The notes beneath the pieces were generated by a model. That model saw only the letters and a list, made by a program, of their open reading frames with translations. It had not been told where the DNA came from and did no database searches. A DNA stretch of 64,000 nucleotides from an uncultured virus (IMG/VR IMGVR_UViG_3300024999_000036) (Duplodnaviria; Heunggongvirae; Uroviricota; Caudoviricetes): the IMG/VR virus record IMGVR_UViG_3300024999_000036; one strand, written 5' to 3'. The translations under genes were made by a program, and so were the position numbers. Below are positions 2,122 through 59,415 of this stretch, in pieces; the stretch's first letter is position 1; every line of letters begins with the position of its first letter.

Positions 2122-2251
2122 AAGAAGTTAGGTATCTAGGGGAGTAGCTACCCCTCTCTACACAACCTAACTTCTTTTTTATTTTTAATTTTAAGGGGAA
2201 ATGTGTAGAGAATTATAAAATAAATTGTGTAGAAAGGGATTGGTGATATAA
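2122..2251 (+). promoter_or_regulatory. Terminator-like structured leader of endonuclease gene
   Basis: Stem AAGAAGTTAGGT/ACCTAACTTCTT plus T-tract; inner hairpin AGGGG-AGTAGCTA-CCCCT; TCTCTACACA complementary to 2202-2211 and largely to 2225-2233. Confidence 0.65.
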
Positions 2252-3091
2252 TTGTTAATTAGTAAAGAGGTTGAAGTAAAATTACATTCAACAAATATCA
2301 GATATTATGAAGAAAAAGGATACCCAATACCAAGAAAAAAAGATAAACATGGAAGATTTCTAGTTCCTAGAGGATCTACAATTATAGTAAAAATTAAAGA
2401 TTTGCAATTAAAAAGTAATGTAGATATTGATATTGAATGTGATTACTGTGGAATTAAATTTAAAAGAAGGTATGCAGATCATACTTTTATACATAATAAA
2501 GATAATAATATTGATAATGATGCTTGTGAAGATTGTGCAATTTTAAAATTTAAAGAAGTATATTTTTTAAAACATGGAGTTAAAAATCCATTTTGCCAAA
2601 ATGAAGTTAGACAGAAAATAGCAAATACATTTAGTAAAAACAATTCTGTGAGTACATCTAAACAACAAATATATTTACATAATTTATTAGGTGGTGAATT
2701 AAATTATGCTAATGATACTCCTGTTTTAGATATTGCATATCCAGATGAGAAAATTTATCTTGAATATAATGGTGGAGGCCACAACTTAAAAGTTAAATTA
2801 GGTATTGAAACAGAAGAAGAATTTAAAAATAAAGAATTAAGAAGATATCATTATTTAAAAGATAAAGGATGGAAAGCAATATTTATAGATTCTAATGAGG
2901 ATTTTTTACCAAAAGATAATATGATAATTGATATTATTAAAATAGCAAAAGATTATTTATCTAAAGATAATAAATGGATTAAATTTAAAATAGATGAAAA
3001 TAAGGTTATTTATGGTTCTAAATTAGAAGAAATATTTGATTATGGACAATTAAGAAAAATAAAAGATAAAGATATAGAAATAGTTAGTTAA
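2252..3091 (+). CDS. Free-standing homing-endonuclease-like protein (Zn finger plus DUF559/Vsr-like nuclease)
   Basis: CDYC and CEDC pairs; LDIAYPDEKIYLEYNGGGH nuclease motif. Confidence 0.75.
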   Translation: MLISKEVEVKLHSTNIRYYEEKGYPIPRKKDKHGRFLVPRGSTIIVKIKDLQLKSNVDIDIECDYCGIKFKRRYADHTFIHNKDNNIDNDACEDCAILKFKEVYFLKHGVKNPFCQNEVRQKIANTFSKNNSVSTSKQQIYLHNLLGGELNYANDTPVLDIAYPDEKIYLEYNGGGHNLKVKLGIETEEEFKNKELRRYHYLKDKGWKAIFIDSNEDFLPKDNMIIDIIKIAKDYLSKDNKWIKFKIDENKVIYGSKLEEIFDYGQLRKIKDKDIEIVS

Positions 3092-3130
3092 ATATTTATT
3101 AATTTTTATAAAAGGAGTGAATGTGGCTTT

Positions 3131-4126
3131 ATGCCAAAATCAAAAAAAAACAGTAATCAACAAATAAAGTCACAAACTAAAAAAATATGTGATAATTGTA
3201 AAAGAGAAATTGCATTAACTCAATATTATAATACAAATTCTGTATTATCAGTAGATGGGAAATTAAATATCTGTAAAGTTTGTGTAAAGTCTATGATTGA
3301 TTATAATAATATGGAAACAATATATAAAATTCTTCAATTATTAGATATTCCATTTATATATTCATATTGGAGGTCTGCAATAGAAAAAAATCCAGAAGAT
3401 CCTTGGAGTATATATATAAGAATAGCTAATTCAAAAATGAATGAATTTAAAAAGGGTACTTGGAAAGATAGTAAATTTAAACCTGAAAGTATTAATCCCG
3501 TAAAATTAAATATAGATCAAATAATTACAAGTAATAATCATTTTGATGTTACTAGCGAAATGATATTAAAATGGGGAAATAAATATGATCCAGAAGACTA
3601 TTATGAATTAGAGCAATTTTATAATGATATGCAAAGAACCAATAGTATTGAAACTACTCAAGATATGATTTATTTAAAAAAATTAGCAATTATATCTTTA
3701 AAAATGGATAAAGAATTAGAAGAGGGAAACTATGACGAAGCTAAAAAATTAGGAGATTTATTTTCTAAATATATGGCAGATTCAAAGTTTCGTGCAATGG
3801 ATAAAACTGACGCAGATAAAACTGGTGGTATCAGAAACTTTTGTACTATTTATTCTGAAGTTGAGAAAGATGGATTTATACCTCCTTGGGAATATTATAG
3901 AAAAATAAAAGGCATTAATCAAGATATAGTAGATAAAACAATTATGCATATAGAAAATTTTACTTTAAAACTTAATAAGGCAGAAAAAATGATGTCTCCT
4001 CCATTTGATACACCTAAATTAGAATTGGATGAAATAGATACAGAGAACGTACTAATAATTAATGATATTGAAGTTGATGAAGATGATATAATTGGAGATG
4101 ATGATAACAATGGCATCTCAAAATAA
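3131..4126 (+). CDS. Putative terminase small subunit / pre-terminase Zn-finger protein
   Basis: Directly upstream of TerL and overlapping its start; CDNC and CKVC pairs. Confidence 0.6.
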   Translation: MPKSKKNSNQQIKSQTKKICDNCKREIALTQYYNTNSVLSVDGKLNICKVCVKSMIDYNNMETIYKILQLLDIPFIYSYWRSAIEKNPEDPWSIYIRIANSKMNEFKKGTWKDSKFKPESINPVKLNIDQIITSNNHFDVTSEMILKWGNKYDPEDYYELEQFYNDMQRTNSIETTQDMIYLKKLAIISLKMDKELEEGNYDEAKKLGDLFSKYMADSKFRAMDKTDADKTGGIRNFCTIYSEVEKDGFIPPWEYYRKIKGINQDIVDKTIMHIENFTLKLNKAEKMMSPPFDTPKLELDEIDTENVLIINDIEVDEDDIIGDDDNNGISK

Positions 4127-5898
4127 TTTTAGTAAAAAAAGCAGAAGCATTAAAGATAGTGATACATTTTCTAATCCTCAGAATTTTGAAACTAATAATA
4201 TTAATAATTTACAAATAAAGAGTTTTGAAAATGTTAAAGATCAATGGAGAGAATTATGTAGTTATTTTAGGTGGTATCCCTGACAAATTTCTTGATTTTA
4301 TTTCACCCCCTGATTCTAAAATACAACTATATTATTATCAAAGAGTATATTTAAGAATAATGATGAGATATAGAAAGGTTTTCTTAACTGCTACTCGTGG
4401 AACTTCTAAAAGTTATCTTCAGAATTTAGCTTTTATCTTAAAATGTATTATGTTTGAAAAAACCAAACTTTTTACATGTGCGGTAGGGAAAGAACAAGCT
4501 GCAAAAATTACTGCTGATAATATTAATGATATTTTAGAGCATTATCCATTATTAAGAAAAGAAATAAAAATATTTACTGAAAATAAAGATTATACTAAAT
4601 TAATTTTCTATAATGGGTCAAAATACGATGTCGTTCAAATGCGTGATTCTACAAGAGGTGGTCGTAGGTACGGTGGAGCAATTGAAGAAATTTCAGATAA
4701 AAAATTTGATGGAAATATACTTAATGCTGTTGTAATTCCTCTTATGGCTAATGATCGTATAGCAGCATGTAGTGGTGTTGATCCAGAAGAAATACATAAA
4801 TGTGAATTATATATTACTACAGCAGGTACTCAACAACAATTTTCTTATGAAAAAATGTCAGAAGTTTATCAAGATATGCTTAATGGTAAATCTGCATTTT
4901 GTTTAGGCAATTCTTATGAACTTCCTTGTATGTATGGTCAATTAGATATAGATTTTATTGAAGAATTAAGAGAATCACCAACTTATTCAATATTAGATTT
5001 TATGCGTGAATATCAAAGTATATGGACTGGTTCAAGTTCAGATTCACTTGTTTCAGATGATAAATTGCAAAAGTGTAGAACTGTTCCATTTGCTGAATGG
5101 GAACATTGCGAAGATAATAATGTAATTTATTGTTTAGCATATGATGTTAGCAGAAATGAAGGAGATGAAAATGCTCTTTCTTGTTTGTCAGTTATAAAAT
5201 TAACTCCAAAAAGTAGTGGTAATTTTGTTAAAGAAGTTGTTAATTTATTTTCTATGGAAGGTCAACATGATACTTGGCAAGCAAAGTTTTTAAAGCAGAA
5301 AGTTAAAGAATTTAAATCAAGAATTTTAATTGTAGATGCAAATGGTATTGGAAGTGGTGTTGTAGATCAATTAGTTTTAGATTTAGATGACGGAAATCCT
5401 CCATATAAAGTAGTCAATGATGAGAAAGGAACATGGAAAAAATATGAATCAGATAATGGAATCCCAATGGTATTTGCATTAAAATCCCAAAATAAAGATA
5501 CCAAGAATAGTGATATGATAAATAATTTTATGCAGGTTTTTAATAAGTTAGATGTAGGTTTATTAAAAACTCCATATGAAGGCATAAAAGATTTAGAGAA
5601 AAAATTAAAACATAAAATTAAAAATAGTGATGAATTAGCAAATTTACAAATTCCATATATATTAACAGATAATTTATGTGAAGAAATTATGAATCTTAAA
5701 TATAAGCAGAATGGTAATGAAACAAAGATTGAAAGAATATCAAGAAGGATACAAAAAGATAAATTTTCTGCACTTTTATATGGTTTATGGTGGGTTTATT
5801 TAGAGGAGAAAAAAAATAAAATTCATAAACGTCCAAAAAACATCTCTCCCTCATCATATTTTGCCATAGCAAATAAATCATCAAGAGCAAGAAGATAA
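4110..5898 (+). CDS. terL: Terminase large subunit, two frames joined by a +1 shift at 4278-4284
   Basis: Frame A MASQNNF...YFRWYP* continues in the +1 frame as DKFLDFI. Walker A TATRGTSKS, Walker B GAIEE, ITTAG coupling motif, nuclease motifs LAYDV, IVDANGIG and QKDK. Confidence 0.88.
4269..4284 (+). promoter_or_regulatory. Putative programmed +1 ribosomal frameshift site (prfB-like)
   Basis: AGG TGG TAT CCC TGA C: internal SD-like hexamer, 3-nt spacer, shift-prone codon, UGA-C stop. Confidence 0.8.
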
Positions 5899-12298: not shown

Positions 12299-13045
12299 AT
12301 GAGTGATATTTTTAAATTCAAAACCCCGTCTGAAGAAGTTTTTGAATCTATTACACCAGGAACAGTAGTAGCTTCAAAAGCAGTAATAACAGATGCAAAT
12401 AATAAAATTGATACCTTAGATATTACTGCACCTAAAATTGGTGGAGTTGCTTTAACAGCTACTTCTGCTGAAATTAATAATCTTGATGGTTTAACTAGAG
12501 GTTCTATTATTGTTGGTGGAGTTGCTAATGCTACTAGTAAATTAGATGCAAAAACTTCTGGTCAAATTCTTATAGGAGATGGAACTGATTTAGCATCTGT
12601 TGCTGTTAGTGGAGATGCCACACTTGCTGATGATGGTACATTGACTCTTGCTGTACCTAAAGTTTCAGTAATTAGTAAAGTTTGTGCTATTGCAGATTTT
12701 ACTGATAATTTAGATACTACTGGTTATATTGATTTTACTTCACAATTGCCAGCAGGTGCGATTGTAATTGGGTGGAAGGCTATTGTTTCTGCTGGATTTG
12801 CTGGTGATACATCTGCTGTAATAAAAATTGGTGTTGATGGTACATTGGGTAAATTTTCTGCAAGTGTAGCACAATCTGTTTTTGCTGCTGGAACTGTTGG
12901 TTCTGGTGCTCCAATGGATACATGTTTTAATGCTGTTGCTTCTACTCCTAGAATTACCGTAACTGGCAATGCTGATTTTACAAGCATTGTAACTGAAGGT
13001 AATGGAGCAATGAATGTATATTTGTATTATATTGCTACCGTCTAA
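12299..13045 (+). CDS. Putative virion structural/decoration protein
   Basis: Gly/Ala/Thr-rich; VSGDATLADDGTLTL fibre-like motif. Confidence 0.55.
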   Translation: MSDIFKFKTPSEEVFESITPGTVVASKAVITDANNKIDTLDITAPKIGGVALTATSAEINNLDGLTRGSIIVGGVANATSKLDAKTSGQILIGDGTDLASVAVSGDATLADDGTLTLAVPKVSVISKVCAIADFTDNLDTTGYIDFTSQLPAGAIVIGWKAIVSAGFAGDTSAVIKIGVDGTLGKFSASVAQSVFAAGTVGSGAPMDTCFNAVASTPRITVTGNADFTSIVTEGNGAMNVYLYYIATV

Positions 13046-15821: not shown

Positions 15822-16619
15822 ATGAGTAATACTTTCGTAATTAAAGAAGTTTTAGATTACAATGTATCTAAATATGCTACTTCTGGTTATGGTGATTTTT
15901 TATTTTCAGTAGATTATGCAAAAAGTTCAACAGTACAAACTACTGCTGAAAGACTTCCTATAAGGGGTGGGCAAGGAAATTATAAAATAATGGATTTAGA
16001 TCATACTAAGGATTGTATGTTTAATTCTGTTTTGCCACTTGTAGATATTAAAGCTTTAGCTGTGAAACTTGGTAAAGATGTAACTATTGGTGCAACAACT
16101 GCACCTAAAAAGGATATTAAAACAGTAAGTGCAACTAACACAATAACTCTTTCTAATACACCACTTGCAGGAACTTTAAAAGTATATATTCTAAGTGGTG
16201 AAAGAGATTTGGGAACTATTCAAACGGTTGGGACTCCTGGTACAACCCCTAATACATACTCAATTGCAACTGCTACTATCACACTTAATGCTACTTCTTG
16301 TCCAGAAGGTTCAAAAATTATAGCTTTTTATGATTATACATCAGGGGTAACTGCTCAAAATATTAAAATAACAGCAGCAGATTTCCCTTCATTTATTACT
16401 ATAACTGGTCGTGGCTTAGTAGATGATGATGTAACTGGTTTGAAAATTCCAGTGACTTTTAAAGTGCATAAGGCAAAAGTCAAACCTGAATTTGAATTAA
16501 CTATGGCTTCTGATGCTGCTACTGAATTGGCATTTGATTGTGATTGTTATACTATTCTTAATTCTAGTGCAGAAAGAGAATTTGTAGATATTGTTAAATT
16601 GAACGATGAAAGTATGTAA
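15822..16619 (+). CDS. Major tail tube protein
   Basis: Strong SD, Thr/Ala-rich, IRGGQGN motif, followed by a hairpin. Confidence 0.7.
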   Translation: MSNTFVIKEVLDYNVSKYATSGYGDFLFSVDYAKSSTVQTTAERLPIRGGQGNYKIMDLDHTKDCMFNSVLPLVDIKALAVKLGKDVTIGATTAPKKDIKTVSATNTITLSNTPLAGTLKVYILSGERDLGTIQTVGTPGTTPNTYSIATATITLNATSCPEGSKIIAFYDYTSGVTAQNIKITAADFPSFITITGRGLVDDDVTGLKIPVTFKVHKAKVKPEFELTMASDAATELAFDCDCYTILNSSAEREFVDIVKLNDESM

Positions 16620-16740
16620 AAACAAGATTATTGAGTAAATTTTATTAAGGTTGATTTAATAAAAGTAATATATTAGAGACTTTTATACCAGAATATAAAA
16701 GTCTCTATTTAATTTCATTCTATTCGGGAGGAGTGAAATT

Positions 16741-17835
16741 TTGATAATTAGCAAAAAAGTTGAAGTAACATGGGCAAGAAATAATTGTACATGGTATAAA
16801 TCTAAAGGTTACTTATTTACAAAATTAGGGGATAAATTTTTAGTTTCTATAAATGATTTAAGAGAGGGGAATAAAGTATTAATAGAAGTAATTTGTGATT
16901 GTGAATTATGCAATAATAAAATTATCAAAAAAATTCAATATAGTAATTATGTTCGTTCGATTAAAAATAATGGAAAATATTACTGTAAAGATTGTTCTAT
17001 AAAATATTTAACAGTAAAAAAAGCAACAAAAACAAAACTTAAAAAAGGTATATCTTTTGGTGAATATTTAATTAATAGTTTTGGAGAAAATGCAATTGAA
17101 GAATATTGGTCTAATTTAAATATAATTAATCCATTTGAGATTAATTATCATAGCAATAAATTTGTATGGATTAAGTGTCAAGATAAAAATTATCATGATG
17201 ATTATTCAACTACATGTAATAATTTTATTAATGGAAATAGATGTCCATACTGTAGCGGTAAAAAAATACATAAATTAGATAGTTTAGGATGTTATTTAGA
17301 AATAAATAATTTATTATATTTATGGTCAGATAAAAATAAAAAATCTCCCTATGATTATTTACCTAATTCTAATAAAAAAGTTTATTGGAAATGCCCTGAA
17401 GGAAAACATGATAACTATAAAAGATATATTTCTAATTCAAATAAGTATAAATTTCGTTGTCCTGATTGTCAATTTTCAGAAGGAGAAGAAATAACAAATA
17501 ATTATTTATTAAGTAATAATATAAATTTTTTACCCCAAAAAGAATTTGAAGGTCTTATTGGTCTTGGTGGTGGTAATTTATCATATGATTTTTATTTACA
17601 GCAATATAAATTGTTAATTGAAATTCAGGGTATACAACATGAAAAGCCTATAGATTTTCAAGGAAAAGGTAAAAAATATGCTGAAGAACAATTTAAAAAA
17701 CAGTTAGAACACGATAAACGTAAACGTGAATACGCTAAAAACCATAATATAAAATTACTTGAAATTTGGTATTATGATTTTGATAAGATTGAAAAAATAT
17801 TAGATGCAATTTTAATAAATAGAAACAATATATAA
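16741..17835 (+). CDS. Free-standing endonuclease (Zn-ribbon repeats plus DUF559-like nuclease)
   Basis: WIKC..CPYC and YWKC..CPDC repeats; LSYDFYL..LLIEIQGIQH motif. Confidence 0.8.
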   Translation: MIISKKVEVTWARNNCTWYKSKGYLFTKLGDKFLVSINDLREGNKVLIEVICDCELCNNKIIKKIQYSNYVRSIKNNGKYYCKDCSIKYLTVKKATKTKLKKGISFGEYLINSFGENAIEEYWSNLNIINPFEINYHSNKFVWIKCQDKNYHDDYSTTCNNFINGNRCPYCSGKKIHKLDSLGCYLEINNLLYLWSDKNKKSPYDYLPNSNKKVYWKCPEGKHDNYKRYISNSNKYKFRCPDCQFSEGEEITNNYLLSNNINFLPQKEFEGLIGLGGGNLSYDFYLQQYKLLIEIQGIQHEKPIDFQGKGKKYAEEQFKKQLEHDKRKREYAKNHNIKLLEIWYYDFDKIEKILDAILINRNNI

Positions 17836-23675: not shown

Positions 23676-23704
23676 TTGACAGAATACTAATATAATTATA
23701 TAAT
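23676..23704 (+). promoter_or_regulatory. SigA promoter of the HU gene
   Basis: TTGACA-17-TATAAT exact consensus. Confidence 0.8.
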
Positions 23705-24096: not shown

Positions 24097-24363
24097 GATA
24101 GATATAAGTAGGGATTAATACATACTTAGTTTTGACTAAGAGATTCTATTTCATATTATTAATAATTTAATAAAATAACAAGTTAATAAAATAATTATTG
24201 AGAGTAGTAGATTAATTTCTATTACTCTTTTTTATTTTATTACAGATAGATGTTTATCATAAATTTTTTATCATAATGCTATAGTAAACATTTCTGTGTA
24301 ATAAAGTTTGCAAATTTGTTAGATAGATAAAATAAATAAAAAAAATTAAGGATGTGGTTTTGA

Positions 24364-25532: not shown

Positions 25533-25561
25533 TTGACATTATTATTTTTGTATTATATAAT
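25533..25561 (+). promoter_or_regulatory. SigA promoter upstream of the antirepressor
   Basis: TTGACA-17-TATAAT. Confidence 0.75.
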
Positions 25562-26581: not shown

Positions 26582-26860
26582 TGGCCGGATTAGTTGATTT
26601 GATTAGTGATTAATTAATAAAGAATACAATATTAGTATTTATTTAGAGAGGATTTTTTATGTCCTCTCTTTTTTATGTGTGTTTTTTATTAATTAATTAT
26701 AAAAATTATTAGAATACTAAAATAAATATAGTTGACATTGCTATAGATATATGTTATTATATAATTACAAAATTACTTCTATCTCTACTTCTATCTTCTC
26801 ATTTTTGATAATTACATATATGTAGTGTATAATAATATGTGGATAGGAGTGTGATTAAAC

Positions 26861-27205
26861 ATGTCAACAAAAGATGATAAATTAATAATAAGAGTATCAC
26901 CAGGATTGAAAAAGCGTATTGAATATACAGCGAAGAAAAAAGGTAAAAATGTTTCAGATTTTGTTAGAGATATTATTACTTTGTTTTTAGATAAGGAACA
27001 ACCCGAATATTTAGATTCAATTAATATATTGAGACAATTACTTCGTGATAGAGAAATACTTCAAGATAAGATATATAAAAACAAAATTAATGATTCTAAT
27101 TTAGAAGAAACTGAACAATTAATATTAGAATTAGTACGTATTCAACAAAAGATTTATGAGATGGAAAAGTATATTAATGATTATTTGAATAGTAAAGATA
27201 TATAA
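26861..27205 (+). CDS. Ribbon-helix-helix DNA-binding protein with coiled coil
   Basis: KDDKLIIRVSPGLKKRI...VSDFVRDII; promoter TTGACA-17-TATTAT at 26732-26760. Confidence 0.75.
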   Translation: MSTKDDKLIIRVSPGLKKRIEYTAKKKGKNVSDFVRDIITLFLDKEQPEYLDSINILRQLLRDREILQDKIYKNKINDSNLEETEQLILELVRIQQKIYEMEKYINDYLNSKDI

Positions 27206-27412
27206 GATAGGATAATTATGGATAGAAATATTAAAAATAGAAATATTCTATGCAAATATTAGTTATTAGATGATATGTGACCATAATATAGTTATTTAAC
27301 CGAATATAATGGGTTAACAGATTTGTATACCCAAGTAAATTCCTTTATACTAATGATTAAGTAAAGGATACATTTTCCTTTGCAATATTAAGTATAAAGG
27401 AATGTTTATTTT

Positions 27413-27727
27413 ATGAGAATTAACTTGTTTAAAATGGAGAGATTGTTTGATACTTTTAAAGGTAATCCAGTAACTATTAATGTAATTGGCAATATTTCAA
27501 TACCATTTTATATTGAGAATTTTCAATGGGAACATAGTGTTAATGAGATTACTTTTGGTGAAAGTGGAGAAAATGATAGTTGGTTTAGGATTGATAAAGA
27601 TGATTTGGTTGGAATACATAATGAGTATGAGTTGTTTGGTAGTGAGGATAAGATTGTGTTTGAGATTAGATTTGATGGGTTTAGGACGGATTATGAGGTT
27701 ATGTTTAGTTGTATGTTAGTTGGTTGA
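27413..27727 (+). CDS. Small acidic beta-rich protein, apparent paralog of 45527..46000
   Basis: SD AAAGGA; own promoter TTGTAT-17-TATACT at 27323-27351. Confidence 0.65.
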   Translation: MRINLFKMERLFDTFKGNPVTINVIGNISIPFYIENFQWEHSVNEITFGESGENDSWFRIDKDDLVGIHNEYELFGSEDKIVFEIRFDGFRTDYEVMFSCMLVG

Positions 27728-27780
27728 TTGGGATGATTTGGGTTGAGTTTGATTATTGTTGATTGATAATATAAATATAT

Positions 27781-27910
27781 AGGGATAGGTAGGAGTAATT
27801 AACCTACTAATAAGAGAGGTATTCCTGAACCTCTCTTCCTGTTTGTTTTTTTAATCAGGATAGGAGTTATTGTTAGATTAATATTATAAATATAAACTTC
27901 AGGAGGTTTT
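27781..27910 (+). ncRNA. Conserved structured leader RNA, copy A
   Basis: GGATAG-hairpin-TAATAAGAGAGGT-ATTCCTGA-ACCTCTCTTC; closely related copy at 59264-59400. Confidence 0.6.
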
Positions 27911-31604: not shown

Positions 31605-34600
31605 ATGTCAAATCAAAACGATCTTGCTATATATTTAAAAATCTTGATCGAAAATAATTCCAAATCAAACATAGTCACAGAAACAGATAAACTTATTCAG
31701 ACACTTCAGCAAAAACTAAATAAAATAACAATTGCTCCTACTATCAAACTCCCCACTACTGCTAATATATCAGATATTGTTAATAAAATAAATAAATTAT
31801 TATCTGCAAGAATTGAAGCAAGTGTTAATTTAAAAAATATTAATTTAGGTAAATCTGGTAATATACAAGCACCAGTATCAACACAAAATACTCAAATTGT
31901 TAAAGAATTAGATGGTACTGTAAAAAAATATACAGAAACAGTAAAGAAAAATGGTGAAGTAATACAAAAAACTACTGAAATTATAGATAAAAATAAAATT
32001 ACTAAACAGCAATCTGCATCATCTCAAGTAGTAAATAATATTAATAAAGAAACTGATGCAGTTGAGAAGTTAAATAGTGAATATGGTAAATTAATTAGAA
32101 CTGTTAAATTAAAAAAAGCCAATGGAGATCCATTAAGACAAGATCAAACTTATCTAAATTCTCAAACTGGAGTTAAAACTACTGTCACTTCTAGACCAAA
32201 TCAAGAAAATATTTATAGAACAGATAGTGATTTTGGTGCTAAGAAAAATGCTGATGCTTTAAAAGAACAGATGAAATTAGCAAGGGAATCTGCAAAAATT
32301 GCTAAACAGTCAAATGATTATCATCAATCGTATTATAAAGTACAACAGAAAGCATTTGATGATAATAATAAGGAATATTTGCGTGGAGTAAAATTAAGAG
32401 AAAAAGCAGATTTAGAATCAGAAAAAAATAGACAAAAATATATTCAAAATAGAGTTAAACAAATGCAACAAGAGCAAAAACAACAACAAATAACTACTCA
32501 AAATAATGTTAAATTAATGCGTCAAGAAGCAGAAGCAAGATTAAAATATTATACTAATAGTCAAAAAATAAAAGGTACTGATTTTAATGCTGAAAATGCT
32601 GAATATCTCAGAGGTGTTAAACTTAGAGAAAAAGCTGAACAAGATGCCCAAAAAATAAAGCAAAAACAAATTCAAGATAGTGTTAAATTACTACAACAAG
32701 AGCAAAAAGAAAGAGAAAAAAGTGAACAAAATTATATAAAATCTCTAAGACAAACAGCAGAAGAAAAACTAAGATTACATCAAACAAGTGTTAAATTAAT
32801 AGATCAAGAAAATGCCGAATATTTAAGAGGAATTAAACTTAGAGAAGCAGAACAACAAAAATTTATTGTAAATCAAGAAAGAATAAATAAACAACTCAAT
32901 ACTAAAACACAAAATGCATTAGGGTTGGGTGTAAAATTTAATAATCTATCTCCAGAACAATTAGCACCTTTAGAGAAAGCATTAAATAGATATAAAACAT
33001 TAATAAATAGTATGCAACAAAAAAATATATCTGGTCAAGTAGTTTCAGATAAAGATTTGGAAAGATTATCTAGATTAGAAAATGCAATTAAAAGGGTTTA
33101 CGATCAAACTAGAATCGCTAGTAAAGATTCTAGAGGTTTTAATTTTGAACAATATCCCAAAATGCAAAATGCCGTACATGGTGCTACTAACGCTCAAAAT
33201 TATTATAATCAATCTATTATGCATGGTAAAAAATTATTAGAGGCCAATATTCAAGAAACTGAAAAATACATAAAAGTAACACAAAGACTAAGAGATGGTT
33301 CTAAAATAACAAATGTAACTGCTTATGTTAATAAATTAACTGGTGAAACACATAAATTTAGTGAATCCATGAAAGATTTAATGACTAGAACATGGGATGT
33401 AGGTTCTGCATTTAAGACTGCCTTGCAAAAAATACAGCTTTGGGCAGGAGCTACTGGTTTAGTATATGGATTTATTAATGGATTAAAGCAAATGGGTAAA
33501 GAAATAATAGAAATCGATACAAAATTAACCGAATTAAGTAAAGTATTAGATAATAATACTGATTGGTCTAAATTAATGGAAGATACTGCTGAGAGTGCTA
33601 ATAAAATGGCAAGATCGCTTACAGAAGCGTTAGATGCTGAAATAGAGTTTGCAAAACAAGGTTTTGAAGCAATTCAAGCAGTAGAATTAGCAAGAACAGC
33701 GATGTTAGGTGCTAACGTAACTGGCTTAAAAACAAGTGAAATGGCTAATTATCTTACTGGAGCATTAGCACAGTTTAATATTGAAGCAGAAAAAAGTTCG
33801 ACAATAATCGACAAATTAAACGAAGTTGATAATAACTTTGCTGTGACGAGTATAGGTCTAGCGCAATCGATAAACAAAGCTGGTGAGGCAGCACAACAGT
33901 ATGGGGTTGATATAAATAGCTTGATCGGTTATACTACAGCCATACAAACAGCCACACGGGAATCTGGAAATCAAATAGGAAATATGTTAAAAACTGTATT
34001 TTCTAGGATAAATATGGATAAAACACAAGAACAACTTGTATCTTTAGGAATTGCTGTTAAAGATGTTACAGGTAATCTTCTTCCATTAAATTCCATTTAC
34101 CAATCTGTTGCGACCAAATGGGATGCTATGTCTAGAGCAGAGAGAACCGCTACTGCAGAAGCACTATCAGGCCGTCATCACATAACGAGATTAATGGCAT
34201 TATTTGACAACTGGAACATCGTGACAGATGCAACCGCTACAGCACAAACATCTTTAGGTTCAGCAATTGAAGAAAATTATAAACATTTAAATTCATTGGA
34301 AAGTAAAATAAATCTTAATAAAGCAGCATTTCAGGAATTTTCTTATGCTTTAGGTGAATCAGGTGTAAAAGGTGCTATGATTGCTGTATTAGGTGTTATT
34401 GCTCAATATATAAATGGTTTTACAGAACTTACACAAAATTATAATGGAGTAGTAACAGCAACATCTATTTTAGGAACAGCATTAATTCTTTTAATCCCTA
34501 AAATAAAATTAGAATATACTAATTGGATTTTAAGAAATAATCTTGTAGCTACTGCTATACCATTAAATCATAGACTAGCAATATCTTATACTATGCTTGG

Positions 34601-37600
34601 CAATATGATTAAAGGGGCAACTGTAAGTTTAATTGCTTTTTCTAAAGCAATGTTAAAAAATCCTTTAACATGGATAATTGTTGCAATTACTGCTATCCCT
34701 ATGTTCTTGGGACATTTAAAGCAAGTAAGAGAAGAACAAGAGCAATTAAATAGAACATATGAAGAAACTAAGAAAAAATTAGATGAAATTCTTGAAAAAA
34801 CAAATAAAATTGGTCAAACATCATTACAAGATATTAATGATATTGATGCGACTGTTAAAAAATTAGATGAATTAAAAAATAAACTTCAAGAAATAAATCA
34901 AGAACATAGGTCTGGTGCTTTTGGGTTTCAATCAGCATCAGTAAAAGATTTATCAAAAGAATTAAAAGATTTGGCAGCACAAATGGGAATAAATATTACG
35001 CAATATCATACAGTAGATGAAGTTTTAGAAGCAATAAAAGAAAAACAAGACGAATTATCAGGAAGTATAGGTAATGCAAAAGATAATTCAACAGAATATC
35101 AAAAAACATTGATAGATCAAGCTAGTAATCAAACAAAAGTTGCCGATAATAATGTTAAATTAATTGATACATATCAAGAATTAAGTAATAAGAGTAATTT
35201 AACAGCAGAAGAACAAAAGAAATTAAATGATATAACTGCAATATTAACTCAAAGTTATCCACATTTAATAGATGCTAAAGGCGATACTATAACCATATCT
35301 AATAAAGTTATTGAAGCAATAAGGAAAGAAGCACAGCAACAAAAGAAAACAGCAGATGAGAATGAAAAAGCAACAAAAAGACAAATTATAAGCAATAGAG
35401 GAAAACTTCAAGATCAAATTAAGACAAGTTTAGGTATAATAAAATCCCTTAGTGGAGAGATAACAGCATTACAAGCATTAAATAATGCTAAAATTGACAC
35501 AGATTATTTATCTGAAGCACAAGTACAAAATACTTTAGATAGAATGCAAGGGAAAAATACACCATATTCTAGTGGTGTTGATATATTATTAGGGGAAATA
35601 AAAAGTCCTAATTCTACTAAATTAAATGCATTGCGTAATAAATACAAAGAAGAAAAAAATATATTAAAAGAAGCATATGATAGTATAGCGAGTATTGATG
35701 ATGCTTTAAGTAGTTCAATATCAGATTTAACTCAATCAACTAAAGATAGTGCAGATTCATCAAACTCCACATCAGAAGCAAAATCAGCAGAATCTCTAGC
35801 ATGGGAAAAAGTAACAAATAATATCAAGTCATACGACAATGCTCTTAAATCCTTAGAGGACACCACTTCTAATATGATTAAAGGTTCTAAAGCACGTAGA
35901 GATTCCCTACATGCTGAAAACTTAAAAATAAAGGAGCAGATCGAATATTTAAAGCAACAAAGAAGTGGATTAAATAGTACATCTGCTTCTTCTAATTCTA
36001 ATGTATATACTCCTACATCAACAGGTAAAGCAAAAGGTATATTAGATATTGCATTAGATTCATTAGGCACTCCTTATAAATGGGGAGGTAACGATCTTAA
36101 AATTGGTGTAGATTGTTCAGGATTAGTACAACAAGCATATAGAGAAGAAGGAGTAAGTGTTCCTAGAGTAACATATGATCAATATAAACAAGCACCAATT
36201 AAAGGATTAAAACAAAATGAGTTACAACCTGGAGATTTAGTATTCTTCAATAATTTAGCACATGTTGGAATATATATGGGCAATGATAAATTTATTGAAG
36301 CACCTCGTACTGGTTTAAATGTAAGAACATCAACACTATCTTCAAGAAGTGATTATTATGCTGGAGCAAGATATTTATCTGGTGAAGGTACATCACTAGT
36401 AACATCCTCCTCTAATTCAAATCTAACATATGAAAAACTAGCAGAAGATCGTATTAAACATCAAGAAGAAATCAATGCTAAGATATTAGAATTAGAAAAG
36501 AAATTTGCTGAAAACTCTAAAGAATGGTACACAGATTTATGGTCAGAGTCGGATAACATCATTAATGAATTTGAGCAGAAAAGTAATTTCTCTAAAATGT
36601 TTTCTGAAAGTATGTCTAAGTCATCTCCTAAATATAGAGAACAATTAGACATACAAAAAAATAGCACAATAGGTATTCAGAAACAATTAGCAGAACAAGC
36701 TAAACAAATGGATCAAGCTATTGAAAACATGAAAAAAGGTATTATAGAAGGTACGTTTAAAGATGAGCAATTCTTAAATGAAACAATAGAAAAAAGAAAA
36801 GCATTATCTGCTGAATGGTGGAATAAGCAAAAAGAAATTATTGATAAGCAAGCAGAAATAACATCTAGTGAAGTTGAAGAATTAACATATAAAATTGATA
36901 AATATAACAACATAATATCTATTTCTCAAGCACAACAAGAAATGAATGAAAAAGGTAGTATAGAATATAATAACGCTTTAAAAGATGAAGTTATTCAATA
37001 TACTAATATAGCATCTGCTCTTAAAGCAAAACAAGTAATATATCAGAAAGAATTAGCTGATACTCTTGTTGGAACATTGAGATATGAGGAATTACAAAGA
37101 GCAATTTCAGATACAACTAAAGAAATAATAGACAATGAAAAAGCACTATATAATAAAAAAATATCTATAGCAGACGATATTATATCAATATACAAAGACA
37201 CATATGAAAAACAGAAAGATTATGCTTTAGATGCTATAGATGAACAAATTAAAGCAGAAGAAGATCGTCATGAGCAAGCAATAAAAAATATTGAAGACGA
37301 AACGAAACAATATGAGGATTCTATCAATGAAAAATTAGCCCTATTAGATAAGCAAGCAAATCAAGAAGATTATACTAAAGATTTAACTAAACTACAAAAA
37401 GAAGAAGCAGAAATTAAAAAGAAAATAGACGTATTAGCATTAGATGATAGACACGAAGCAAATGCTAAAAGAATTGATTTACAAAAAGAATTAACAAGTA
37501 AGCAGGAAGAAATTGAAGAATTACAGACAAATCGTTCAAGAGAGTTAAGGAAAGAAAATCTTGAGGATCAATTGGATGCATATAAGAAAGACAATGATGC

Positions 37601-38543
37601 AAAAAAAGATTCAGAAGATGATAAGTATGACACTATAAAAGATAATTTGGATGATCAAAAAGAGATTACTGAAAAGTATTATGAAAACTTGATAAATGAC
37701 GAGAGAAAGTTTGCTCAAATTAGAGAGGATATTATTAAAGGCAATTTCAGTAATATTCAAAATGAATTATCTAATTTTGAAAGTATTGCAAGTTCTAAAT
37801 TTAAAAGTTTAGGTACTAATATACAAACTAATTTTATTAATCAAATTAAAAATGCTTTATCTGCATTGCAAAGTTTTAATGATGCTAGTGGTGCTGATAT
37901 TGGTGGTAGTAGTGGTTCATCGAGTAATAATTCTGGTTCGAATAATTCTAGCAATCATAGTCAGTATTATCCTTGGAAATCACAGATTAATAATATAATT
38001 TACGATAAGAAAATGTGGCAACAAGGATATGAAACTGGTAATCAACAGATGATGAGAGATGCTGAAAATGAAGCAAAAATATATTATGATCAAATTCCAG
38101 ATAATATTAAAAGTTTATTACAAGGTATGGACTATACTTCTGCTAAAAGTTGGTATGATAGTAATGTTTACCATGAGGGAGATGTAGTTGGTGGAAGTGT
38201 AAAAGGATCAAGAATAGCAAATATTATAGATAAATTATTTAATAAAGGTCAGAATGAACAAATATCTAAATTACTTAATGGTGAAGTAGTATTAAGTAAA
38301 CGAGGAATTGATAATTTCGTTCCAATGTTACAAAATATGGTATCTAGTTTTACTTTACCTTCATTTAATCTTCAACCGCAAGGTGCTGGTGGATTAAAAA
38401 TTGATAGTTTATTAACTATTAATGGTAATGTAGACAGAGCAGTTATGCCACAATTAGAGGATTTGGTTAATAAAACAGCAAATAAAGTGGCAGAAATACA
38501 AAAGAAAAATTTAAATATGAGTGGAATATTTAGGAGAGTGTAA
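31605..38543 (+). CDS. Tape measure protein with NlpC/P60 peptidase domain
   Basis: 2312 aa; TP901-like core (DKLNEVDNNFAV, TRESGNQIGN); LGTPYKWGG..DCSGLV..HVGIY. Confidence 0.92.
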   Translation: MSNQNDLAIYLKILIENNSKSNIVTETDKLIQTLQQKLNKITIAPTIKLPTTANISDIVNKINKLLSARIEASVNLKNINLGKSGNIQAPVSTQNTQIVKELDGTVKKYTETVKKNGEVIQKTTEIIDKNKITKQQSASSQVVNNINKETDAVEKLNSEYGKLIRTVKLKKANGDPLRQDQTYLNSQTGVKTTVTSRPNQENIYRTDSDFGAKKNADALKEQMKLARESAKIAKQSNDYHQSYYKVQQKAFDDNNKEYLRGVKLREKADLESEKNRQKYIQNRVKQMQQEQKQQQITTQNNVKLMRQEAEARLKYYTNSQKIKGTDFNAENAEYLRGVKLREKAEQDAQKIKQKQIQDSVKLLQQEQKEREKSEQNYIKSLRQTAEEKLRLHQTSVKLIDQENAEYLRGIKLREAEQQKFIVNQERINKQLNTKTQNALGLGVKFNNLSPEQLAPLEKALNRYKTLINSMQQKNISGQVVSDKDLERLSRLENAIKRVYDQTRIASKDSRGFNFEQYPKMQNAVHGATNAQNYYNQSIMHGKKLLEANIQETEKYIKVTQRLRDGSKITNVTAYVNKLTGETHKFSESMKDLMTRTWDVGSAFKTALQKIQLWAGATGLVYGFINGLKQMGKEIIEIDTKLTELSKVLDNNTDWSKLMEDTAESANKMARSLTEALDAEIEFAKQGFEAIQAVELARTAMLGANVTGLKTSEMANYLTGALAQFNIEAEKSSTIIDKLNEVDNNFAVTSIGLAQSINKAGEAAQQYGVDINSLIGYTTAIQTATRESGNQIGNMLKTVFSRINMDKTQEQLVSLGIAVKDVTGNLLPLNSIYQSVATKWDAMSRAERTATAEALSGRHHITRLMALFDNWNIVTDATATAQTSLGSAIEENYKHLNSLESKINLNKAAFQEFSYALGESGVKGAMIAVLGVIAQYINGFTELTQNYNGVVTATSILGTALILLIPKIKLEYTNWILRNNLVATAIPLNHRLAISYTMLGNMIKGATVSLIAFSKAMLKNPLTWIIVAITAIPMFLGHLKQVREEQEQLNRTYEETKKKLDEILEKTNKIGQTSLQDINDIDATVKKLDELKNKLQEINQEHRSGAFGFQSASVKDLSKELKDLAAQMGINITQYHTVDEVLEAIKEKQDELSGSIGNAKDNSTEYQKTLIDQASNQTKVADNNVKLIDTYQELSNKSNLTAEEQKKLNDITAILTQSYPHLIDAKGDTITISNKVIEAIRKEAQQQKKTADENEKATKRQIISNRGKLQDQIKTSLGIIKSLSGEITALQALNNAKIDTDYLSEAQVQNTLDRMQGKNTPYSSGVDILLGEIKSPNSTKLNALRNKYKEEKNILKEAYDSIASIDDALSSSISDLTQSTKDSADSSNSTSEAKSAESLAWEKVTNNIKSYDNALKSLEDTTSNMIKGSKARRDSLHAENLKIKEQIEYLKQQRSGLNSTSASSNSNVYTPTSTGKAKGILDIALDSLGTPYKWGGNDLKIGVDCSGLVQQAYREEGVSVPRVTYDQYKQAPIKGLKQNELQPGDLVFFNNLAHVGIYMGNDKFIEAPRTGLNVRTSTLSSRSDYYAGARYLSGEGTSLVTSSSNSNLTYEKLAEDRIKHQEEINAKILELEKKFAENSKEWYTDLWSESDNIINEFEQKSNFSKMFSESMSKSSPKYREQLDIQKNSTIGIQKQLAEQAKQMDQAIENMKKGIIEGTFKDEQFLNETIEKRKALSAEWWNKQKEIIDKQAEITSSEVEELTYKIDKYNNIISISQAQQEMNEKGSIEYNNALKDEVIQYTNIASALKAKQVIYQKELADTLVGTLRYEELQRAISDTTKEIIDNEKALYNKKISIADDIISIYKDTYEKQKDYALDAIDEQIKAEEDRHEQAIKNIEDETKQYEDSINEKLALLDKQANQEDYTKDLTKLQKEEAEIKKKIDVLALDDRHEANAKRIDLQKELTSKQEEIEELQTNRSRELRKENLEDQLDAYKKDNDAKKDSEDDKYDTIKDNLDDQKEITEKYYENLINDERKFAQIREDIIKGNFSNIQNELSNFESIASSKFKSLGTNIQTNFINQIKNALSALQSFNDASGADIGGSSGSSSNNSGSNNSSNHSQYYPWKSQINNIIYDKKMWQQGYETGNQQMMRDAENEAKIYYDQIPDNIKSLLQGMDYTSAKSWYDSNVYHEGDVVGGSVKGSRIANIIDKLFNKGQNEQISKLLNGEVVLSKRGIDNFVPMLQNMVSSFTLPSFNLQPQGAGGLKIDSLLTINGNVDRAVMPQLEDLVNKTANKVAEIQKKNLNMSGIFRRV

Positions 38544-54306: not shown

Positions 54307-54338
54307 ATTATCAATATAACAAAGGAGAGATTAACAAT

Positions 54339-56082: not shown

Positions 56083-56132
56083 ATGTGTATTATATTATAT
56101 ATAATTTAATATGTCAAAAGGTAATATCTACA

Positions 56133-56201
56133 CAAAATTGTTGTTTTATCACGATTTTTTAAGAAATTAATAGTCAACAAAGTATTATAAAATAAGGGTT
56201 T
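56133..56201 (+). repeat. Bipartite dispersed repeat, copy 5
   Basis: CAAAATTGTTGTTTTAT-29 nt-AAAGTATTATAAAATAAGGGTTT. Confidence 0.7.
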
Positions 56202-56408
56202 ATAAATTGGGTATATTTGGAATATTTAAGATGTTGCGATATTTTTGAGTTATTTGGAGAGATGAATCGGATTAGGATAGAAAGTGTACGTTGATTATTT
56301 AAGTGTGGGATTTGAGGGTAATTATGGTTTAAATTGATTTTTTATTGAAAGACACTTCTTAATCGAAGTGTCTTTTTTGTTTTTATTATTCAAATAATTA
56401 AAAGGAGA

Positions 56409-56627
56409 TTGATATTCATGGAAAACAAAATTCCTGTAGTTACTATTCACAGTCAGGCAATGGCTGGATTTTTGATGCTTCACAGATTTATTCTAATTGA
56501 TCAACGTGAAGATTTAAAGAATAAAAATAAGAATGTATTTATATTTAAAGATTCTAAAGAAATAAGAAATGCAATGAAAAAATATTCAGAACAAAAAGAA
56601 ATAATAAATAAAATCATATTCGGTTAA
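56409..56627 (+). CDS. DUF5659-like small protein
   Basis: IHSQAMAGFLM...DLKN...NVFIF.DS pattern. Confidence 0.65.
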   Translation: MIFMENKIPVVTIHSQAMAGFLMLHRFILIDQREDLKNKNKNVFIFKDSKEIRNAMKKYSEQKEIINKIIFG

Positions 56628-56665
56628 TTCTAATATTCTTATTCAAAGGAGGTTATTCAAATAGT

Positions 56666-58135: not shown

Positions 58136-58238
58136 TATAAATATGCACCCATTTTTACTTAAAGATATATTATATAATTTAGTAAATTTAGGTGCATATA
58201 AATTTTTACATATTATTAAATCAATATTGGATGGATTA

Positions 58239-58266
58239 TAATTATTGCGTTTAAACGCAATAATTA
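58239..58266. repeat. Perfect 28-bp palindrome
   Basis: TAATTATTGCGTTT|AAACGCAATAATTA. Confidence 0.9.
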
Positions 58267-58423
58267 AAGACAGACAAAAAGGTTTTGTGTCTTTGTTTTT
58301 TATATTTATATATAGATATTTTTTTTATTAAATGACATTAGAATATTAAAATAAATATATTGATTTAATTGTTTTTTAATGTATAATAAATAGTAAATTA
58401 ATAATAAAAAGGAGTAATTACAT

Positions 58424-58906
58424 ATGATACCTAAAAGAAATGTTTTAAATAAATTAATTTTACTATTGTTAATTAAATTATCTGGTAAAATAAACGGAGC
58501 AACTCGTCTTCAAAAATTAGTATTTTCTGCTCAATCAGAAGGAAGAAAAAATAAATATCTAACATTTAATTATAAATTTATTCGTTGGCATTATGGGCCG
58601 TATTGTAAGGAATTAACAAAAGATATTGATTTTTTATCTAAATCAGAATTTATTATTATTAATGAAGACAGTAGTTTTGAATTAAAAGAAAAGGGATTTA
58701 AAATTATCCAAGGTGTTGAATTAAATATGATAAAGGAAATAAAAAATTACTTAAAAGAAATATTAGATAAATATAATCATCTAAATATTATAATTCTTCT
58801 AAGACATATTTATGATGATTACAATATTGAAAAAGAGTATGAAATGGGAGATGTGATACTTCCTGTATTAAATTTTTATGATTATGAATATGAATATTTT
58901 GAATAA
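58424..58906 (+). CDS. Panacea/SocA (DUF4065)-like antitoxin-domain protein
   Basis: GATRLQKLVF...FIRWHYGPY motif. Confidence 0.7.
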   Translation: MIPKRNVLNKLILLLLIKLSGKINGATRLQKLVFSAQSEGRKNKYLTFNYKFIRWHYGPYCKELTKDIDFLSKSEFIIINEDSSFELKEKGFKIIQGVELNMIKEIKNYLKEILDKYNHLNIIILLRHIYDDYNIEKEYEMGDVILPVLNFYDYEYEYFE

Positions 58907-58943
58907 TAATTAAATATATGATTAAAATAGAAAGGTAAAATAA

Positions 58944-59165
58944 ATGAATAAATCATTAAACAACATAGAATCAAATAACACACAACAAGATTGTCCTTAT
59001 TGCTCCGCATCATCCATCCTACTCTCATCTAACTTCAATGATAAACAATATTTATTATATTTTCAGAATGATAATATAACTTTATTTGAAATGGATAATA
59101 TAGGGATGGAAGTATTGGGTGAGGTTAAGATTAGGTATTGTGTGGGGTGTGGTAGGGAGTTGTAA
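58944..59165 (+). CDS. Small Zn-ribbon protein
   Basis: CPYC...IRYCVGCGREL. Confidence 0.65.
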   Translation: MNKSLNNIESNNTQQDCPYCSASSILLSSNFNDKQYLLYFQNDNITLFEMDNIGMEVLGEVKIRYCVGCGREL

Positions 59166-59263
59166 TTAGATGTAAATAGAATGGTTTAACTTAGTATGGA
59201 TGATAATTTAATATTTAAGTTTATTTTAAGAGTAGATTAATTTCTGCTCTTTTTGTTTTTTGT

Positions 59264-59415
59264 GGATAGGTGAATTATGACGATAATTTGCTGATAAGAG
59301 AGGTAATTCCGAACCTCTCTTCTTTTTTATTTTAATGGTGTTTTTTATCGGAATAGGATTGTTGGATTTATAGATTGCTAAAATAAAAATCTACGGAAGG
59401 ATTTGGTGATGTAAA
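59264..59415 (+). ncRNA. Conserved structured leader RNA, copy B
   Basis: GGATAG-hairpin-TGATAAGAGAGGT-AATTCCGA-ACCTCTCTTC. Confidence 0.6.

Follow-up and report, generated by a model that had tools for sequence, protein, structure and literature searches.

Putative cis-acting leader RNAs of homing-endonuclease-type genes in an uncultured low-G+C phage

Homing endonucleases must be made in tiny, well-timed amounts, and to our knowledge the control of free-standing members outside the T4 group is largely unknown. In T-even phages, RNA structures hide the ribosome site of homing-endonuclease genes (I-TevI, I-TevII, I-TevIII, segB and Aeh1 mobE), and the passages of PMC2988022 that deal with these genes also describe late promoters inside the hairpins, internal terminators and autorepression. 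The present analysis concerns the 5' leaders of nuclease-family genes in a stretch of 64,000 nucleotides (nt) from an uncultured virus of the Caudoviricetes (IMG/VR record IMGVR_UViG_3300024999_000036), hereafter called the window. Three of these leaders (A, C and D; Table 1) carry a short pyrimidine-rich word, X, that is complementary to two purine-rich segments further downstream, namely site 1 and, overlapping or abutting the Shine-Dalgarno sequence, site 2. Judged from the sequences of homologous leaders, X covaries with both sites. We consider it most likely, with moderate confidence, that A, C and D belong to a large and uncatalogued family of 5' leader RNAs acting in cis, which accompany free-standing homing-endonuclease-type genes in uncultured low-G+C phages and would serve as a translational brake with a built-in competitor.

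The likeness to the T-even leaders, as far as the passages in PMC2988022 describe them, lies in a cis-acting RNA structure that involves the Shine-Dalgarno sequence in front of a homing-endonuclease gene, often combined with terminators into a layered restraint; the fourth leader of the window, B, is exactly of this local-hairpin kind at 16711–16740. An earlier, sequence-only reading of the window also named simple hairpin control of the ribosome site as known for T4 homing endonucleases. The T-even structures described in PMC2988022 are, however, single stable local hairpins in which the ribosome site pairs with neighbouring sequence and which are escaped through a late promoter inside the hairpin. 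In leaders A, C and D, in contrast, the predicted partner is a loop or strand located 40–110 nt upstream and carried by a conserved scaffold with several arms; the pairing word can vary freely, together with its target, a second decoy target is common, and the nucleases belong to unrelated families.

Leader anatomy and covariation of X with its targets

Leaders A, B, C and D each lie directly 5' of a gene with PHROG or Pfam matches to nuclease families (weak matches in the case of gene C), which agrees with the description of structured leaders of homing-endonuclease-type genes in the sequence-only reading. The complementarities quoted there for A, C and D are all present. C and D share, as stated there, an identical 9-base-pair (bp) stem, the pattern of which occurs twice in the window and not at all in 100 shuffles, and the differences between their 8-nt loops are matched by differences in both downstream targets. 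The stem of leader A is unlike that of C and D, being 12 bp long and enclosing a small hairpin and a 10-nt strand. Its word X, TCTCTACACA, faces two sites that lie within a 23-nt tandem direct repeat (2187–2209 and 2211–2233, 74% identity), suggesting that the second target arose by local duplication. Site 2 of A is placed directly 5' of AAGGGA (2234–2239), which is followed by GGTGAT (2242–2247) and the start codon TTG at 2252; in D, site 2 is likewise followed by GGTGAT (59405–59410) and by the start codon ATG at 59416.

In its full form, the leader scaffold looks, from the sequences compared, like a three-way junction composed of an outer stem (P0), a hairpin (Pa) and an arm (Pb) or strand that contains X. 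The hairpins of the sequence-only reading thus make up only a portion of a larger, three-armed fold. In the A-type leaders, nothing but a bare strand is left of Pb. P0 is formed by a 5' A-run paired with the U-run in D-type relatives and by AATGG and CCATT in leaders with a single site (read by eye); it is weak or absent in C and D of the window, where no convincing P0 was found. X ends 0–1 nt before the 3' arm of a stem in A, C, D and their relatives, a placement that is the predicted geometry of an H-type pseudoknot.

The Pa loops are often centred on short palindromes (TAGCTA, TCATGA, TTGCAA, TGATCA and TTCGAA), which lie beside a bulged A in A-type leaders; such loops are found in the window at 2145–2150 and 27796–27801 and, among others, in L142, L151, L153, L156, L167, L170, L174, L200, L209 and L217. 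A G/C-containing 6-nt palindrome is present 5' of X in 21 of 38 leaders, compared with 12.0 expected from shuffles and with 5 of 38 in a control region 3' of X. A cruder test based on the longest palindrome of the Pa loop was not significant (a median of 0.62 of shuffles reached the observed length). From its sequence, the palindromic loop could be a site of RNA dimerisation or of protein binding. The junction word CTGATAAG resembles the CUGAUGA box of hammerhead ribozymes; this candidate was rejected, as no Rfam ribozyme was matched.

Relatives were collected in several ways. The stem together with its conserved flanks identified 3 viral loci, 16 metagenome loci (9 family members and 7 unrelated, G+C-richer loci) and 6 loci in genome contigs, one of which (L136) is a family member. 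L136 is a prophage of Sporosarcina globispora DSM 4 and has the same sequence as the viral locus L114. A scan for the stem alone returned at least 112 stretches, mostly unrelated terminators, with L012 and L060 as the only family members among the matches listed. A profile of the N-terminal 110 residues common to the product of gene A and three relatives gave 204 viral-contig stretches, 80 of which were kept. Together with the earlier loci and the four window leaders, these amount to 92 leaders in 63 clusters, for which the upstream 190 nt were read.

The same design recurs in these relatives with different words. L113 has the loop TTCCTTTC, matching GAAAGGAA at the Shine-Dalgarno sequence; L114 has ATCCC, with GGGAT present twice; and L115 and five metagenome loci have TTCCGA(T), with TCGGAA present twice. 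Site 1 of L126 has undergone an A-to-G change by which a G.U pair is retained. Locus L141 matches gene A with 99% identity and has the same leader. Among the loci fetched through the nuclease N-terminal domain, the design recurs with stems of many kinds and with about 20 words, these domains being closely related; conversely, the same word precedes unrelated proteins, as in D and L115. In a separate set of unrelated viral contigs with 35–36% G+C (L002, L025, L056, L070 and L087), a terminator with the same stem has the loop GCTTGAC and is followed by GTCAAGG or GTTGAGG beside the start codon of the next gene, and the differences between these two versions keep G.U pairs. On this sequence resemblance, pairing between a loop and a ribosome site may reach beyond nuclease leaders.

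Two targets of X were found in 31 of the 63 clusters, one target in 7, and no such design in 25. The two-target design noted in the sequence-only reading is thus frequent but not universal. In the seven one-site clusters, the sole target always adjoins the Shine-Dalgarno sequence; it forms the loop region of a small hairpin, and the Shine-Dalgarno sequence itself makes up the 3' arm of that hairpin. The covarying partner of the ribosome-site region is located 40–110 nt upstream, and the windows that give the best duplex for site 2 start between 30 and 13 nt ahead of the start codon. In A-type leaders, a few nucleotides separate the end of site 2 from the Shine-Dalgarno sequence; in C, D and many relatives, site 2 overlaps the purines of that sequence.

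Cognate and non-cognate combinations of leader segments were compared, the non-cognate controls being relatives of each other. In a naive test for the longest stretch of the last 40 nt that is complementary to the sequence 5' of it, the mean was 7.40 nt for cognate versus 6.64 nt for non-cognate combinations, and 0 of 20000 permutations reached the cognate value. A 6-mer matching two sites was found in 18 of 63 cognate clusters versus 94 of 3906 non-cognate pairs, and a 7-mer (at least 3 G/C) matching within the last 32 nt in 21 of 63 versus 184 of 3906. A further test used an anchor independent of the sites, namely the 8 nt that precede the 3' arm in a U-tailed stem; 34 of the 63 clusters have such a stem. 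A downstream complement of at least 7 nt was present in 15 of 34 cognate cases, in 22 of 1122 non-cognate cases and in 0 of 34 cases with X reversed, and 0 of 20000 permutations reached the observed mean.

Site 2 also tracks X when analysed alone and without an alignment. Eight distinct X words, compared with the last 34 nt of each leader, matched their own leader over a mean of 6.6 nt and the others over 3.8 nt, and only 2 of 40320 permutations reached the observed sum. For ten simple-hairpin (C/D-type) leaders, the observed value was reached by 4 of 200000 permutations in the upstream region and by 29 of 200000 in the last 32 nt, a signal that holds even with the wrong hairpin picked in two of the ten leaders. 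Several pairings are held only through G.U pairs (site 2 of L144, and site 1 of L152 and L181).

A covariance model (R1) was built from six A-type leaders (seed A6) with X:site 1 as a nested helix; rows L142, L143, L147 and L152, and then L151, L159, L167, L192 and L203, were left out of the seed. The model gave 27 matches at E-values up to 1 in 143,853 bases, and its only match in the window is leader A (2141–2254). In four related records or genomes, it found nothing new beyond the known L113 locus. In alignment A7, which was fitted to the X:site 1 structure, both sides of the X:site 1 helix are changed in 10 of 10 pairs and 94% of cells are paired; the covariation score of this helix and the Pa helix together is 0.563, compared with 0.172 after shuffling (reached by 0 of 500 shuffles) and 0.05–0.10 after sliding. 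MAFFT alignments A1, A4 and A5 had the sites out of register and were excluded from the pair counts.

A rule requiring a 6-mer with at least 2 G/C, 42–170 nt upstream, with its complement present twice in the last 78 nt was applied to the 57 gene starts of the window. It picked three: A, C and the gene at 27413. With 5-mers, it added D and one probable chance match at 12299. The leader of the gene at 27413–27727 (27340–27402) has a design different from that of A, C and D and is the sole other gene start picked by the 6-mer rule; it consists of two tandem hairpins, in each of which an anti-Shine-Dalgarno word is paired with a Shine-Dalgarno-like word (Table 1). Leader B had been listed in the sequence-only reading as a weaker case of the loop-target design (16674–16733). 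This was not upheld, as no loop-to-target match of at least 6 nt is present in 16674–16743 and its two loops match at only 5 of 6 positions (read by eye). Leader B is a plain local ribosome-site hairpin of the T4 kind, which holds GGGAGGAG.

No Rfam 15 family matched the window at gathering thresholds. At E-values up to 1, the window and 12 fetched loci gave only matches far below threshold (StyR-143, 28 bits versus 176; mir-202; and CRISPR-DR7). The sequence-only reading had named a lack of loop-target covariation, or a match to a described Rfam family, as what would speak against it; covariation was observed and the search returned no family. No description of such a leader was found in the full-text literature, a search whose scope did not extend to subscription journals and supplements.

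Proposed mechanism and alternative explanations

In the mechanism that we propose, the scaffold would display the pyrimidine-rich word X directly 5' of the 3' strand of a stem. X would pair with the purine-rich site 2 at the Shine-Dalgarno sequence and so form a long-range pseudoknot or loop-loop contact, which would hinder binding of the 30S ribosomal subunit and keep the nuclease scarce. In about half of the clusters, a second and usually stronger copy of the target (site 1), located between X and site 2, would compete for the single X, and the relative strength of the two pairings would set how often the ribosome site is masked. Both sites track X through many changes and the one-site leaders keep the ribosome-site target, suggesting that X:site 2 is the functional contact and site 1 its competitor. 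Likewise, the sole target kept in the one-site clusters is the one at the Shine-Dalgarno sequence, so that masking of the ribosome site is probably the common denominator of the family.

The two pairings are mutually exclusive, each leader having one X for two sites. The upstream site forms the stronger duplex on average (−12.2 versus −10.3 kcal/mol for the site adjacent to the Shine-Dalgarno sequence). With a single X, and with site 1 nearer, transcribed earlier and stronger, the ribosome site would be mostly open at equilibrium unless site 1 is removed. A competitor or rheostat therefore fits better than a bistable switch. Of the pseudoknot switch between two alternative targets put forward in the sequence-only reading, the pseudoknot geometry and the mutually exclusive targets are supported; a signal-driven switch may exist, but no input signal or sensor was seen.

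In A and D, the stem and U-run probably also terminate part of the transcripts. A terminator scan listed D (59296–59321), B and, weakly, C (tail CCTGTTTGTT); A is absent from its list because the loop exceeds 8 nt, and was recognised as a U-tailed stem by a separate script. In the relatives of D, the U-run forms the 3' strand of the outer helix; C and L114 have only a poor one, and the one-site leaders have none. A terminator is therefore not the common denominator, and from these patterns termination is likely an extra layer in some members rather than the defining role. In L114, a consensus promoter is placed so as to start the transcript at the 5' motif of the leader. Leader C is preceded by an A/T-rich 19-nt box, of which a copy with 17 of 19 positions identical lies between sites 1 and 2 (27876–27894). 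By its sequence and position, this box may be a promoter element, the repeated copy giving transcripts without X, which would be a bypass as in T4.

Several points weigh against the proposed brake. Of the 63 clusters, 25 lack the loop-target design, and the X words of the other 38 were assigned after reading the sequences, not blind. The use of relatives as non-cognate controls and the fitting of A7 to X:site 1, which biases its X:site 1 figures, have been mentioned above. In A7, the site 2 columns are misaligned in at least 6 of the first 18 rows; X:site 2 is only modestly paired there (67.4% versus 60.4% after shuffling, reached by 2 of 500) and has a covariation score of 0.170 versus 0.140 (reached by 49 of 500). 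The numbers of G.U and A.C combinations at helix ends are equal (26 versus 26) and uninformative on strand specificity. The 5-nt match between X and site 2 of D is unremarkable by itself. Site 1 forms the stronger duplex in 26 of the 31 two-site clusters and is also transcribed first. Finally, the single-sequence folding energies are ordinary (z-scores of −0.6 for A, −0.6 for C and −1.4 for D), so that the case rests on covariation and not on stability; no stable local ribosome-site hairpin is present in the centroid structures of A, C and D, and B alone has one.

The strength of site 1 would also suit a static module, in which the scaffold and the X:site 1 pseudoknot act, for instance, as a 5' stabiliser, a ribosome standby platform or an insulator against read-through from genes of the host phage, and site 2 is marginal and resembles site 1 through local duplication. 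The tandem repeat that contains both sites of A, and the stem followed by a U-run in A and D, are in line with this explanation. It is nevertheless unlikely: it does not account for the tracking of X by site 2 through eight words, for the seven one-site clusters that keep the target next to the Shine-Dalgarno sequence and not the upstream one, or for the poor U-runs of C and L114.

An elaboration of the brake, which we consider improbable, is that the leader is a true regulatory device and not a fixed brake. Either prematurely ended leader transcripts, tethered to read-through mRNAs through the self-complementary Pa loop, would close the ribosome site with a second X, the X of the mRNA itself being parked on site 1, or a protein on the conserved bulged Pa hairpin would choose the target; the Pa hairpin is only a candidate sensor. 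If true, the tethered-transcript version would be a dose-compensating, self-titrating RNA circuit on mobile nuclease cassettes. A related explanation, quite improbable to us, is repression in trans, in which terminated leaders act as small RNAs whose X binds site 2 of read-through messenger RNAs (mRNAs), the X of the latter sitting on site 1 and the Pa loop serving as the tether. The terminator-like stem and U-run of A and D, the single cis X that faces two targets, the excess of 6-nt palindromes 5' of X and the consensus promoter directly 5' of the L114 leader would all fit it, but the U-run is not universal, being the 3' strand of P0 in D-type relatives and absent in one-site leaders, and the longest-palindrome test was not significant.

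Whether the contact with site 2 closes or opens the ribosome site is a further question. We infer that site 2 pairing lowers translation. In an activator pseudoknot, as in repZ, loop pairing just 5' of the Shine-Dalgarno sequence would instead open or pre-organise the ribosome site and raise translation, and A-type leaders, in which site 2 does not cover the Shine-Dalgarno sequence, are compatible with this. We regard it as very improbable, given that C, D and many relatives have a site 2 that covers purines of the Shine-Dalgarno sequence, and that the one-site leaders hold the Shine-Dalgarno sequence itself in a stem. In a check made by eye only, neither a leader peptide frame nor a consistent small upstream reading frame after site 1 was seen.

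Watson-Crick covariation alone cannot separate RNA pairing from conserved DNA repeats, and the comparison of G.U with A.C is of no help here. One inverted and two direct copies of the word might therefore be operator half-sites for a DNA-binding protein, for example the nuclease itself; I-TevI acts at its own promoter as a DNA-binding protein, according to the part of PMC2988022 concerned with it. Such an arrangement is hard to reconcile with about 20 words before closely related N-terminal domains and the same word before unrelated proteins. On the coding strand, moreover, the inverted copy always occupies a loop or junction strand next to a 3' arm, and one of the direct copies is at the Shine-Dalgarno sequence; site 2 of L144 and site 1 of L152 and L181 pair only through G.U. 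We therefore give this explanation very little weight. Coincidence in DNA rich in A/T, or mere paralogy between C and D, is negligible as an explanation. Short complements are indeed common (non-cognate pairs reach 6 nt in 85% of naive comparisons), and some unrelated terminators that have the same stem are followed by a 6-nt complement of their loop, but the permutation and control results contradict this explanation.

Coordinates, genes and neighbouring elements

The window has a G+C content of 26% and contains phage tail and head genes. A run search located its DNA in groundwater and sediment metagenome runs only, and a megablast search of 27000–29500 against deposited phages gave no match. 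The nuclease assignments are family names taken from PHROG and Pfam matches; the products of genes A and C match no Pfam family above the cut-off. Gene C starts at ATG 27917 by homology with D-type leaders, GTG at 27911 also being open. In a tblastn search, protein D showed only 28–29% identity, to Geobacillus virus E3 and a Bacillus phage, and a search for loci related to protein D returned no relatives.

Table 1. Features of the leaders and genes discussed, in window coordinates (MFE, minimum free energy structure; aa, amino acids)
Feature	Position	Strand	Description
Leader A, P0, 5' strand	2122–2133	+	12-nt exact complement of 2165–2176; in MFE and centroid
Leader A, Pa	2139–2154	+	Loop with 6-nt palindrome TAGCTA (2145–2150); homologous hairpins with covarying stems in alignment A7 (helix 1)
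Leader A, X	2155–2164	+	TCTCTACACA; pyrimidine-rich, anti-Shine-Dalgarno-like; directly 5' of P0 3' strand
Leader A, P0, 3' strand	2165–2176	+	Followed by U-run 2177–2194, terminator-like; the identical L141 scored as U-tailed stem
Leader A, site 1	2202–2211	+	10-nt exact complement of X; duplex −15.6 kcal/mol (identical L141)
Leader A, site 2	2225–2233	+	9-nt complement of 2157–2165; duplex −12.5 kcal/mol
Gene A	2252–3091	+	279 aa, homing-endonuclease-like; phrog_12131 'homing endonuclease', E 7.7e-25
Virion protein	15822–16619
Leader B, 14-bp hairpin	16674–16707	+	Loop CCAGAA, T-rich tail
Leader B, Shine-Dalgarno hairpin	16711–16740	+	Holds GGGAGGAG (16726–16733); adjoins start TTG 16741; MFE = centroid, z −5.5
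Gene B	16741–17835	+	364 aa, HNH/treble-clef endonuclease-like; PF14311 DUF4379, E 1.3e-14; phrog_559 'HNH endonuclease', E 2e-40
27413 leader, hairpin 1	27340–27347 with 27362–27368		TTCCTTTA with TAAAGGA
27413 leader, hairpin 2	27375–27382 with 27395–27402		TTCCTTTG with TAAAGGAA; holds the gene's own ribosome site
Leader C, 19-nt box	27761–27779	+	A/T-rich; just 5' of leader; repeated between sites 1 and 2
Leader C, Pa	27789–27807	+	GTAGG/CCTAC; loop palindrome TAATTA (27796–27801); in centroid
Leader C, Pb	27812–27837	+	9-bp stem 27812–27820/27829–27837; loop 27821–27828 with X TCCTGA (27823–27828)
Leader C, site 1	27855–27860	+	Complement of TCCTGA; duplex −8.8 kcal/mol
Leader C, site 2	27898–27904	+	Complement of TCCTGAA (27823–27829); overlaps AGGAGG (27901–27906); duplex −9.4 kcal/mol
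Gene C	27911–30835	+	974 aa; weak endonuclease-family matches: phrog_2340 'endonuclease', E 4.7e-8; phrog_1035 'endonuclease VII', E 1.1e-7
Tape-measure gene	31605–38543
Terminator-like hairpin of gene upstream of D	59228–59251	+	Distinct from leader D
Leader D, Pa	59272–59289	+	In centroid
Leader D, Pb	59296–59321	+	Stem 59296–59304/59313–59321 as in C; loop 59305–59312 with X ATTCCGA (59306–59312); then U-run
Leader D, site 1	59348–59354	+	7-nt complement of ATTCCGA; duplex −9.2 kcal/mol
Leader D, optional small hairpin	59371–59393	+	TAGATT/AATCTA, between sites; L115 differs in both nucleotides of the outermost pair; L125 and L126 lack the hairpin
Leader D, site 2	59394–59398	+	CGGAA, 5-nt complement; inside GGAAGGA (59395–59401); duplex −6.3 kcal/mol
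Gene D	59416–60981	+	521 aa, six homing-endonuclease-associated repeats; PF18780 HNH_repeat, E 6.8e-53, 6 stretches

Several elements recur around the leaders. Near-identical terminator-like hairpins (AGAGT.G...ATTTCT...CTCTT followed by a T-run) are located at 24200–24229 and 59228–59251 and just 5' of the D-type leaders in L115, L122, L124, L126 and L127; by its recurrence, this sequence seems to be a terminator module that has been used repeatedly. The region 5' of leader C has a cluster of sigma-70-type promoters with full or nearly full agreement with the consensus, at 23676–23704, 25533–25561, 26732–26760 and 26805–26833 (12, 12, 11 and 11 of 12 matches, respectively), and this region is probably, by its promoter content, an early-gene region. 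A promoter call based on a TATAAATA-type box was rejected, such boxes being too frequent in the A/T-rich DNA of the window. The motif GGATAGG occurs four times on the + strand (26841, 27783, 27858 and 59264) and once on the − strand; it is found at the 5' edge of leaders C and D, directly after site 1 of C and before gene 26861. The relatives carry GATAG or GATAA at the 5' edge of the leader, where the consensus promoter of L114 would start the transcript.

Significance and comparison with known systems

If the proposed reading is correct, these leaders would give Rfam a new and widespread cis-regulatory RNA class, in which a portable leader precedes unrelated nuclease genes and contains a freely reprogrammable pairing word in about 20 variants. 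Engineers could draw on them as a natural collection of orthogonal translation brakes, and they would serve as a marker for mobile nuclease cassettes in phage metagenomes. The decoy target poses a testable question, namely how competing intramolecular pairings set translation levels, and the member in the prophage of Sporosarcina globispora DSM 4 (L136) has a culturable host, which makes bench tests feasible.

Apart from the T-even leaders, several described systems share single features with these leaders. The Escherichia coli rpsO (S15) and T4 gene 32 mRNAs contain pseudoknot translational operators that are stabilised by a specific autoregulatory protein. In these operators, as predicted here, a hairpin loop pairs with a downstream single strand at or near the ribosome site, but the target is duplicated in our leaders and is not known to be so in those operators. 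In repZ of IncI-alpha and IncB plasmids, a pseudoknot activates translation; its formation depends on a leader peptide being translated, and an antisense RNA blocks it. There, too, the loop of an upstream hairpin has as its partner a few nucleotides immediately before the Shine-Dalgarno sequence, whereas the activation, leader peptide and antisense RNA of repZ were not seen in the leaders analysed here. Riboswitch expression platforms use sequestor and anti-sequestor segments, and the likeness is that one segment pairs with either a decoy or the ribosome site; our leaders differ in lacking a conserved ligand pocket or a matching Rfam aptamer, and their order is sequestor, decoy and ribosome site.

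The hok/sok type I toxin mRNA has a refolding leader with several anti-Shine-Dalgarno segments for each Shine-Dalgarno sequence and is triggered by 3' processing. Another type I toxin mRNA with a refolding leader, aapA1 of Helicobacter pylori, is described in the relevant part of PMC5416894. The mRNAs of hok/sok and, as far as that description goes, of aapA1 resemble our leaders in that competing intramolecular pairings gate the Shine-Dalgarno sequence of a harmful gene through anti-Shine-Dalgarno words. The arrangement here is the reverse in number, one anti-Shine-Dalgarno word facing two Shine-Dalgarno-like targets. Listeria LhrC is a small RNA of the terminator-loop type that acts in trans on ribosome-site regions. 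More generally, small RNAs use terminator loops to pair with their targets, as stated in the portion of PMC11979758 on this subject. Within the limits of that account, the pairing of a pyrimidine-rich loop word of a terminator-like hairpin with a purine-rich ribosome-site region is the same as that predicted for our leaders; those small RNAs act in trans on other genes, whereas the targets of the leaders described here lie in cis.

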